Source: Escherichia coli
GTDB lineage: Bacteria > Pseudomonadota > Gammaproteobacteria > Enterobacterales > Enterobacteriaceae
Length of the DNA: 64,000 nucleotides
Strand: one strand, 5' to 3'
Assembly (NCBI RefSeq): GCF_003334315.1
Contig: NZ_QOWR01000007.1
How positions within the stretch are numbered: the stretch's first letter is position 1; each line of letters starts with the position of its first letter. The notes under the pieces are model-generated. The model was not told the DNA's origin. It worked only from the letters and a program-made list of their open reading frames with translations, and did not search any database. This document shows, piece after piece, positions 43,583-43,689 of the stretch. Both the position numbers and the translations under genes were made by a program.

Positions 43583-43608
43583 AGCTGATACCTCATTCTT
43601 AATAAGAT

Positions 43609-43631
43609 AAGATGTATTTTAAATGCATCTT
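43609..43631. promoter_or_regulatory. NsrR operator in the ytfE promoter
   Basis: aagatgtattttaaatgcatctt, 11-1-11 palindrome matching the NsrR box; 27 bp upstream of the ytfE start. Confidence 0.8.
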
Positions 43632-43689
43632 TAAGGCAAATGCTATAACCCTTACGTAGCAGAGGCTTATTTAACTCACTGCCAGTATG

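Follow-up and report, generated by a model that had tools for sequence, protein, structure and literature searches.

The NsrR operator of ytfE and the nsrR gene in a 64-kb window of the Escherichia coli chromosome

The closest described counterpart of the locus reported here is the NsrR site of ytfE in E. coli K-12, for which a passage of PMC5320621 cites Bodenmiller & Spiro 2006 and Partridge et al. 2009. In strain CFT073, ytfE carries the top-scoring 11-1-11 site of the genome together with a ChIP-seq peak, and is induced 69.6-fold in nitrate-grown cultures (PMC5320621). Expression of ytfE is up 544-fold in a Salmonella nsrR mutant (PMC2884951), is induced more than 100-fold in Yersinia pseudotuberculosis and is constitutive in the ΔnsrR background of that organism (PMC6759291), and in O157 a PytfE reporter stays off until an NO donor is supplied (PMC7336997). 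Binding of a [4Fe-4S] cluster, and release from DNA driven by nitrosylation, are established for NsrR proteins (PMC4432287, PMC11500311), and nitrosylation of the cluster by NO is stated in a passage of PMC9052748 to abolish DNA binding. Passages of the same source have YtfE first described as an Fe-S repair protein and later as an NO-generating nitrite reductase, which together with NsrR monitors cytoplasmic nitrite and feeds back on NsrR.

A more remote parallel is provided by the NsrR-hmpA1 operator complex of Streptomyces coelicolor (PDB 5N07/7B0C; PMC5411485, PMC9338935), which resembles the present system in comprising an Rrf2 dimer, a cluster liganded by three Cys and Asp8 (as the S. 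coelicolor structure shows; PMC5411485) and a 23-bp operator. In both, wing and recognition helix touch the ends of the operator, in keeping with the contacts by which NsrR recognizes DNA (PMC5411485, PMC9338935). The S. coelicolor protein (ScNsrR) is, however, only a distant homologue of the NsrR studied here (phmmer E = 1.2e-19; approximately 39% identity in a passage of PMC9052748), its operator sequence differs, and its regulon is limited to three genes, its own among them, whereas the nsrR gene described below has no significant NsrR site. Within E. coli, the yeaR-yoaG and hcp promoters share with the present locus an NsrR box near the core promoter. A NarL/NarP-type heptamer pair lies upstream in the ytfE orthologues of other genera and has a decayed distal heptamer here. 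At yeaR-yoaG and hcp, NsrR repression is combined with NarL/NarP activation. The dependence of hcp on NarL/NarP is cited in a passage of PMC1274295.

The DNA analysed (the window, 64,000 nucleotides in its full length) is a stretch of E. coli chromosome that begins with the end of amiB, continues through mutL-miaA-hfq-hflXKC-yjeT-purA-nsrR-rnr-rlmB-yjfI and later reaches ytfE-ytfF-qorB and beyond. A sequence-only reading had identified the palindrome upstream of ytfE as an 11-1-11 NsrR box, and this identification held at its exact coordinates: aagatgtattttaaatgcatctt occurs as an exact match at 43609-43631, a 23-bp inverted repeat to which no strand was assigned, reading AAGATGTATTT-T-AAATGCATCTT on the + strand and AAGATGCATTT-A-AAATACATCTT on the ytfE sense strand. 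The interval that contains it, 43583-43689, is the whole 107-bp spacer from the ytfF stop codon to the ytfE ATG, both genes lying on the minus strand, and 26 nt separate the end of the operator from the ATG. Ten of the 11 positions pair between the two arms, and the site has the E. coli-type arrangement of two inverted 11-bp arms of the AAGATGYATTT consensus with a 1-bp spacer, agreeing with that consensus at 21 of the 22 constrained positions. It matches the pattern AAGATGYATTTNAAATRCATCTT with no mismatch, and is the single match to that pattern in the window when as many as three mismatches are allowed.

In order to score the site independently of itself, we used a symmetric NsrR matrix built from the 25 other 11-1-11 sites of CFT073 (PMC5320621, Table 4), with ytfE excluded. 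The operator scored 30.5 bits, above all of the 25 training sites (12.2-26.6 bits), so that the matrix scan which the sequence-only reading had proposed as a check was passed by a wide margin. The best scores in 200 Markov-simulated 64-kb windows averaged 14.1 bits and reached 28.0 bits at the highest, all below that of the operator. The runner-up in the window itself, at 14843-14865, scored 12.7 bits, which is below the chance maximum, and the window therefore contains exactly one full NsrR site.

The 23-bp box is base-for-base the same as that of K-12 MG1655 and of an O157:H7 strain, and the description of NsrR-ytfE as a known circuit was borne out by this identity and by the literature. The K-12 site also shares with the window its distance from the ATG and its flanking genes, ytfF and cycA; K-12 differs by three spacer substitutions (43641, 43686 and 43687), all outside the box, and by Pro70 rather than Ser70 in NsrR. 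E. coli strains vary at the sole asymmetric position of the operator, 43615 (T on the + strand, A on the ytfE sense strand). In allele-specific searches of 5,426 complete genomes, at least 4,244 had the A form, which K-12, O157 and the window share, and at least 1,037 had the G form, a perfect palindrome present in CFT073 and an ST131 strain. The G form is the one printed for CFT073 (PMC5320621), whose site otherwise agrees with that of the window in position and arms. It scores 31.2 bits against 30.5 for the A form, a cost of approximately 0.8 bit for the A, and both forms occur across other genera. Together these results support the identification of 43609-43631 as the known NsrR operator of ytfE, with the NsrR gene located in the window as well, at a distance of 32 kb, and the NsrR-ytfE switch found here is an ordinary one that was already known.

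The regulated gene, ytfE (42920-43582, - strand), encodes a 220-residue di-iron protein (RIC/YtfE) that matches the NCBIfam equivalog NF008221 over residues 1-219 with 416.7 bits, the cut-off being 254. Its DNA is 100% identical to that of ATCC 11775, whose YtfE, WP_000331456.1, has an accession common to K-12 YtfE; by way of that shared accession, the protein predicted here is the same as that of K-12. The RefSeq annotations of both ATCC 11775 and K-12 agree with the limits of ytfE and nsrR in the window. The box had been taken to confirm both the orientation and the start of ytfE. A symmetric palindrome cannot itself show the orientation of the gene, and this part of the claim falls; the start stands, although on other evidence, being supported by the position of the ATG as the first start codon of an open reading frame without any earlier one, by a profile match from residue 1, by the ribosome-binding site GAGGT (43590-43594, - strand), which precedes the ATG at 43582 by 7 nt and is invariant among 81 sequences, and by the fixed distance from box to ATG.

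The orthologue scan, with one genome per species, gave 80 ytfE loci from approximately 25 genera of Enterobacteriaceae. The box was present in all 80, scoring 24.4-30.6 bits and lying 24-27 nt from the ATG; in 63 loci the interval is exactly 26 nt. When the 120 nt preceding the ATG were aligned, the columns of the box had a mean identity of 0.945, compared with 0.63 for the upstream spacer and 0.85 for the leader. This conservation is an independent phylogenetic footprint of the operator, and the earlier comparative prediction by Rodionov et al. agrees with it (PMC1274295).

The same alignment contains a second conserved block, distinct from the box and located about 21-22 nt upstream of it, at 43644-43654 (- strand), which reads TAAGGGTTATA here and AAAGGGGTATA in other genera and corresponds to the promoter-proximal heptamer of a NarL/NarP-like 7-2-7 element. 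Its columns are 0.84-1.0 conserved, except for one G/T-variable position (0.53). The NarL/NarP 7-2-7 pattern, TACYYMT-NN-AKRRGTA, was found with two or fewer mismatches in 44 of the 81 sequences, compared with 1.2% of shuffles, and the 7-2-7 site occupies one fixed position in 70 of the 81, with one or two mismatches at that position in other genera; most enterobacterial genera have such a site, its centre 21 nt upstream of the box. Candidate NarP sites at dnrN/ytfE have been predicted before (PMC1274295). Escherichia has acquired a 1-nt insertion and its distal heptamer (approximately 43655-43663) has decayed, leaving the proximal heptamer alone. We tried the window itself as a carrier of a NarL/NarP site and rejected it, the match there having four mismatches, which is at chance level.

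The nsrR gene (10947-11372, + strand) has a GTG start and encodes an Rrf2-family [4Fe-4S] NO-sensing repressor of 141 residues. The position assigned to it in the sequence-only reading proved correct, the protein matching the equivalog NF008240 from end to end (positions 1-141 of 141; 291.3 bits, cut-off 182) and the RefSeq limits agreeing. When the translation was aligned to ScNsrR (5n07), Asp8, Cys91, Cys96 and Cys102 were all present, and Val43 and the wing motif Lx3Gx6Gx2GGx2L, as defined in PMC9338935 and here spanning L49-L67, were intact. The protein is identical at 140 of 141 residues to K-12 NsrR, the form on which experiments were done, the sole difference being P70S. Codon 70 (11154-11156 of the window) specifies Ser here, compared with Pro in K-12, CFT073 and ATCC 11775, and the residue lies three positions past the wing motif, where ScNsrR has Leu and IscR has Asp. 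Of 5,426 complete E. coli genomes searched by allele-specific megablast, at least 1,264 have the Ser70 codon, ATCC 8739 among them. P70S is a common natural variant and not damage.

Several other accounts of the palindrome were weighed against that of an NsrR operator. Short palindromes occur often in AT-rich DNA such as this spacer, and the repeat might in principle have arisen by chance and have no regulatory role. Against this, none of 100 dinucleotide-preserving shuffles matched AAGATGYATTTNAAATRCATCTT, even at three mismatches, the matrix score exceeded those of all 200 simulated windows, and 80 of 80 loci have retained the box, at a constant distance from the ATG, within a spacer that diverges on its flanks; the probability of a chance repeat is, in our view, virtually nil. 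The repeat also lies 3′ of ytfF on the same strand and would be transcribed if ytfF reads through, and it might then act in RNA, as a terminator of ytfF or as a hairpin in the ytfE leader. The arms, however, are one base apart, which leaves no viable loop for a full 11-pair stem; the fold contained only a short AU-rich stem (z = -1.7, with 13 of 200 shuffles folding as well), no terminator-like site was found in 43400-43900, and Rfam gave no match to the repeat, even at E ≤ 1. A role in RNA is exceedingly improbable on these grounds.

That the palindrome is instead the site of a different regulator (IscR or another Rrf2 protein, FNR, or NarL/NarP), with control by NsrR being indirect, gains some plausibility from the shared fold of Rrf2 proteins, which bind AT-rich palindromes of similar length (PMC9338935), and from the separate NarL/NarP-like block 21-22 nt upstream. 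That block, however, is a distinct element outside the box, the palindrome matches 21 of 22 constrained NsrR positions and has a higher score than any other published NsrR site, and ChIP-seq in CFT073 placed NsrR on the ytfE promoter (PMC5320621), all of which makes a different regulator very improbable. A further account accepts the operator but has the circuit behave differently in this strain, through NsrR P70S combined with the asymmetric A allele of the operator. The substitution does lie three residues past the DNA-binding wing motif, and the A allele breaks the perfect symmetry at a cost of approximately 0.8 bit; nevertheless, the A allele is the one present in the K-12 and O157 experiments and in at least 4,244 of 5,426 genomes, Ser70 occurs in at least 1,264 of 5,426, and position 70 is variable among Rrf2 proteins, so we regard an altered circuit as improbable. 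The reading that we prefer, to which we assign a probability of roughly 95%, is that the palindrome is the NsrR operator of the ytfE promoter, where bound NsrR would occlude the core promoter until NO releases it. It builds on the site itself, its score, its identity with K-12, its conservation and the intact ytfE and nsrR genes, all of which were observed directly.

How NsrR would silence ytfE is suggested by the bases at the centre of the operator. The hexamer TAAAAT at 43616-43621 (- strand) is a putative -10 element: box positions 11-16 read TAAAAT in 55, TAATAT in 24 and TATAAT in two of the 81 sequences, accounting for all 81. The central base of the 11-1-11 arrangement, which is unconstrained among NsrR sites, is A in 81 of 81 ytfE promoters, as would be expected if it were the -11 A of a -10 hexamer running from 43621 to 43616 on the minus strand. 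From this central hexamer we predict a ytfE transcription start near 43609 (±2) and a leader of approximately 26 nt. An alternative -10-like hexamer, TATCTT, lies at the 3′ edge of the operator (43604-43609, - strand); the orthologues have TATATT there in 67 of 81 cases and TATAAT in five, and the E. coli form is weaker. Either candidate overlaps the operator, and bound NsrR would thus be expected to occlude the -10 region.

A scan of the ytfF-ytfE spacer for consensus sigma-70 promoters gave no -35/-10 pair, and a search of the 81 sequences for a -35 element at spacers of 15-21 nt gave no convincing hexamer; for these reasons we infer, rather than read directly, the step of promoter occlusion, as we do the -10 overlap and the start. 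In the transcription start site supplements of Kim 2012, ytfE is absent. No terminator-like structure was found between ytfF and ytfE (43583-43700), so some read-through into ytfE may occur, and if it does, bound NsrR would be a roadblock as well as a promoter occluder.

Under the preferred NsrR-operator reading, the switch would work as follows, with NsrR binding, repression and NO induction as given in the literature. An NsrR dimer carrying one [4Fe-4S] cluster per subunit would bind both 11-bp arms of an operator that probably lies over the core promoter, with TAAAAT at its centre and the weak second -10-like hexamer at its 3′ edge; because of this overlap, bound NsrR would bar RNA polymerase and ytfE would be silent. 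NO, from the host or from nitrite reduction, would nitrosylate the cluster and take NsrR off the DNA, and strong transcription of ytfE would follow. The sequence-only reading had gone on to call the nitrosative-stress response intact in this strain. Both parts found here are indeed undamaged, but the whole response cannot be read from two parts of the regulon; other members, hmp, hcp and ygbA, are outside the window, which makes that statement too strong, and the sequence is only consistent with an intact response.

The nsrR gene had further been described as heading an nsrR-rnr-rlmB-yjfI transcription unit. The genes are indeed adjacent in this order on the + strand (nsrR 10947-11372, rnr 11411-13852, rlmB 14032-14763 and yjfI 14890-15291), with rnr and rlmB (11411-14763) recognized by NF008648 (1789 bits) and NF008386 (490 bits) and arranged as in K-12, and the name nsrR-rnr-rlmB-yjfI is used in PMC3534368. 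The rlmB-yjfI spacer, however, contains a terminator-like hairpin (14778-14807, + strand) consisting of a 13-pair stem followed by a T-run, with a folding energy of -18.1 kcal/mol and z = -3.1, and none of 200 shuffles folded as well. A constitutive sigma-70 (RpoD) promoter has been reported in the same spacer (PMC3946193), and the K-12 RNA-seq operon map places nsrR and rnr in an operon that begins at yjeF, includes purA and stops at rlmB (PMC4161252). What we found is therefore not a unit with nsrR first and free of strong internal terminators and promoters: gene order and published name stand, but the hairpin, the yjfI promoter and the read-through from purA mean that nsrR is not necessarily the head and that a four-gene unit is debatable, yjfI being at best a read-through member.

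Upstream of nsrR, the matrix scan gave no significant NsrR site. An NsrR-like half-site, AAAATACATTT, is present 26 nt upstream of the GTG (10910-10920 on the - strand, 10909-10919 on the + strand), with a score of 13.5 bits that makes it the third best in the window, and it lies downstream of a promoter-like GCGACA-16-TATCAT (10876-10903). Autoregulation of nsrR through AAAATACATTT was considered and rejected as unsupported: the window contains three half-sites of 13 bits or more against 2.1 expected, a number within chance, and the text of the CFT073 ChIP-seq paper makes no mention of purA or five other genes of the window.

That this strain has a standard NsrR-ytfE switch, in which the operator allele is that of K-12 and NsrR is a common variant, is of little consequence beyond annotation. 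Given that standard arrangement, PytfE should serve here as a reporter of NO, as it does in O157. The footprint across genera, at 80 of 80 loci, is a clean positive control for the prediction of regulons from motifs, and the operator is an example of how a repressor site and what is probably a -10 element could share the same bases. The two operator alleles, the P70 and S70 forms of NsrR and the loss of the distal NarL/NarP-like half in Escherichia could jointly set lineage-specific thresholds of NO or nitrite for ytfE, with the operator centre separately fixed as a -10 hexamer; we offer this only as a tentative idea and think it rather unlikely.

Elsewhere in the window, an island of approximately 8 kb (about 31400-39700) lies between rplI and ytfB and encodes a TetR regulator, a 3-ketoacyl-ACP reductase, a sugar-phosphate isomerase, an enoyl-CoA hydratase, a CoA transferase, an FAD-binding protein and an MFS transporter. 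At the same place K-12 has yjfZ and a truncated TetR pseudogene only, and in ATCC 11775 the island is accompanied by a HipA toxin-antitoxin pair (approximately 2.2 kb) that is missing from the window. Rfam matches above the gathering score were the RpsF leader (29792-29876, + strand), the sRNA ES239 (48188-48310, + strand), STnc450 (51662-51719, - strand), ES036 (CssrF; 51799-51841, - strand) and naRNA4 (CssrE; 60825-60903, + strand).
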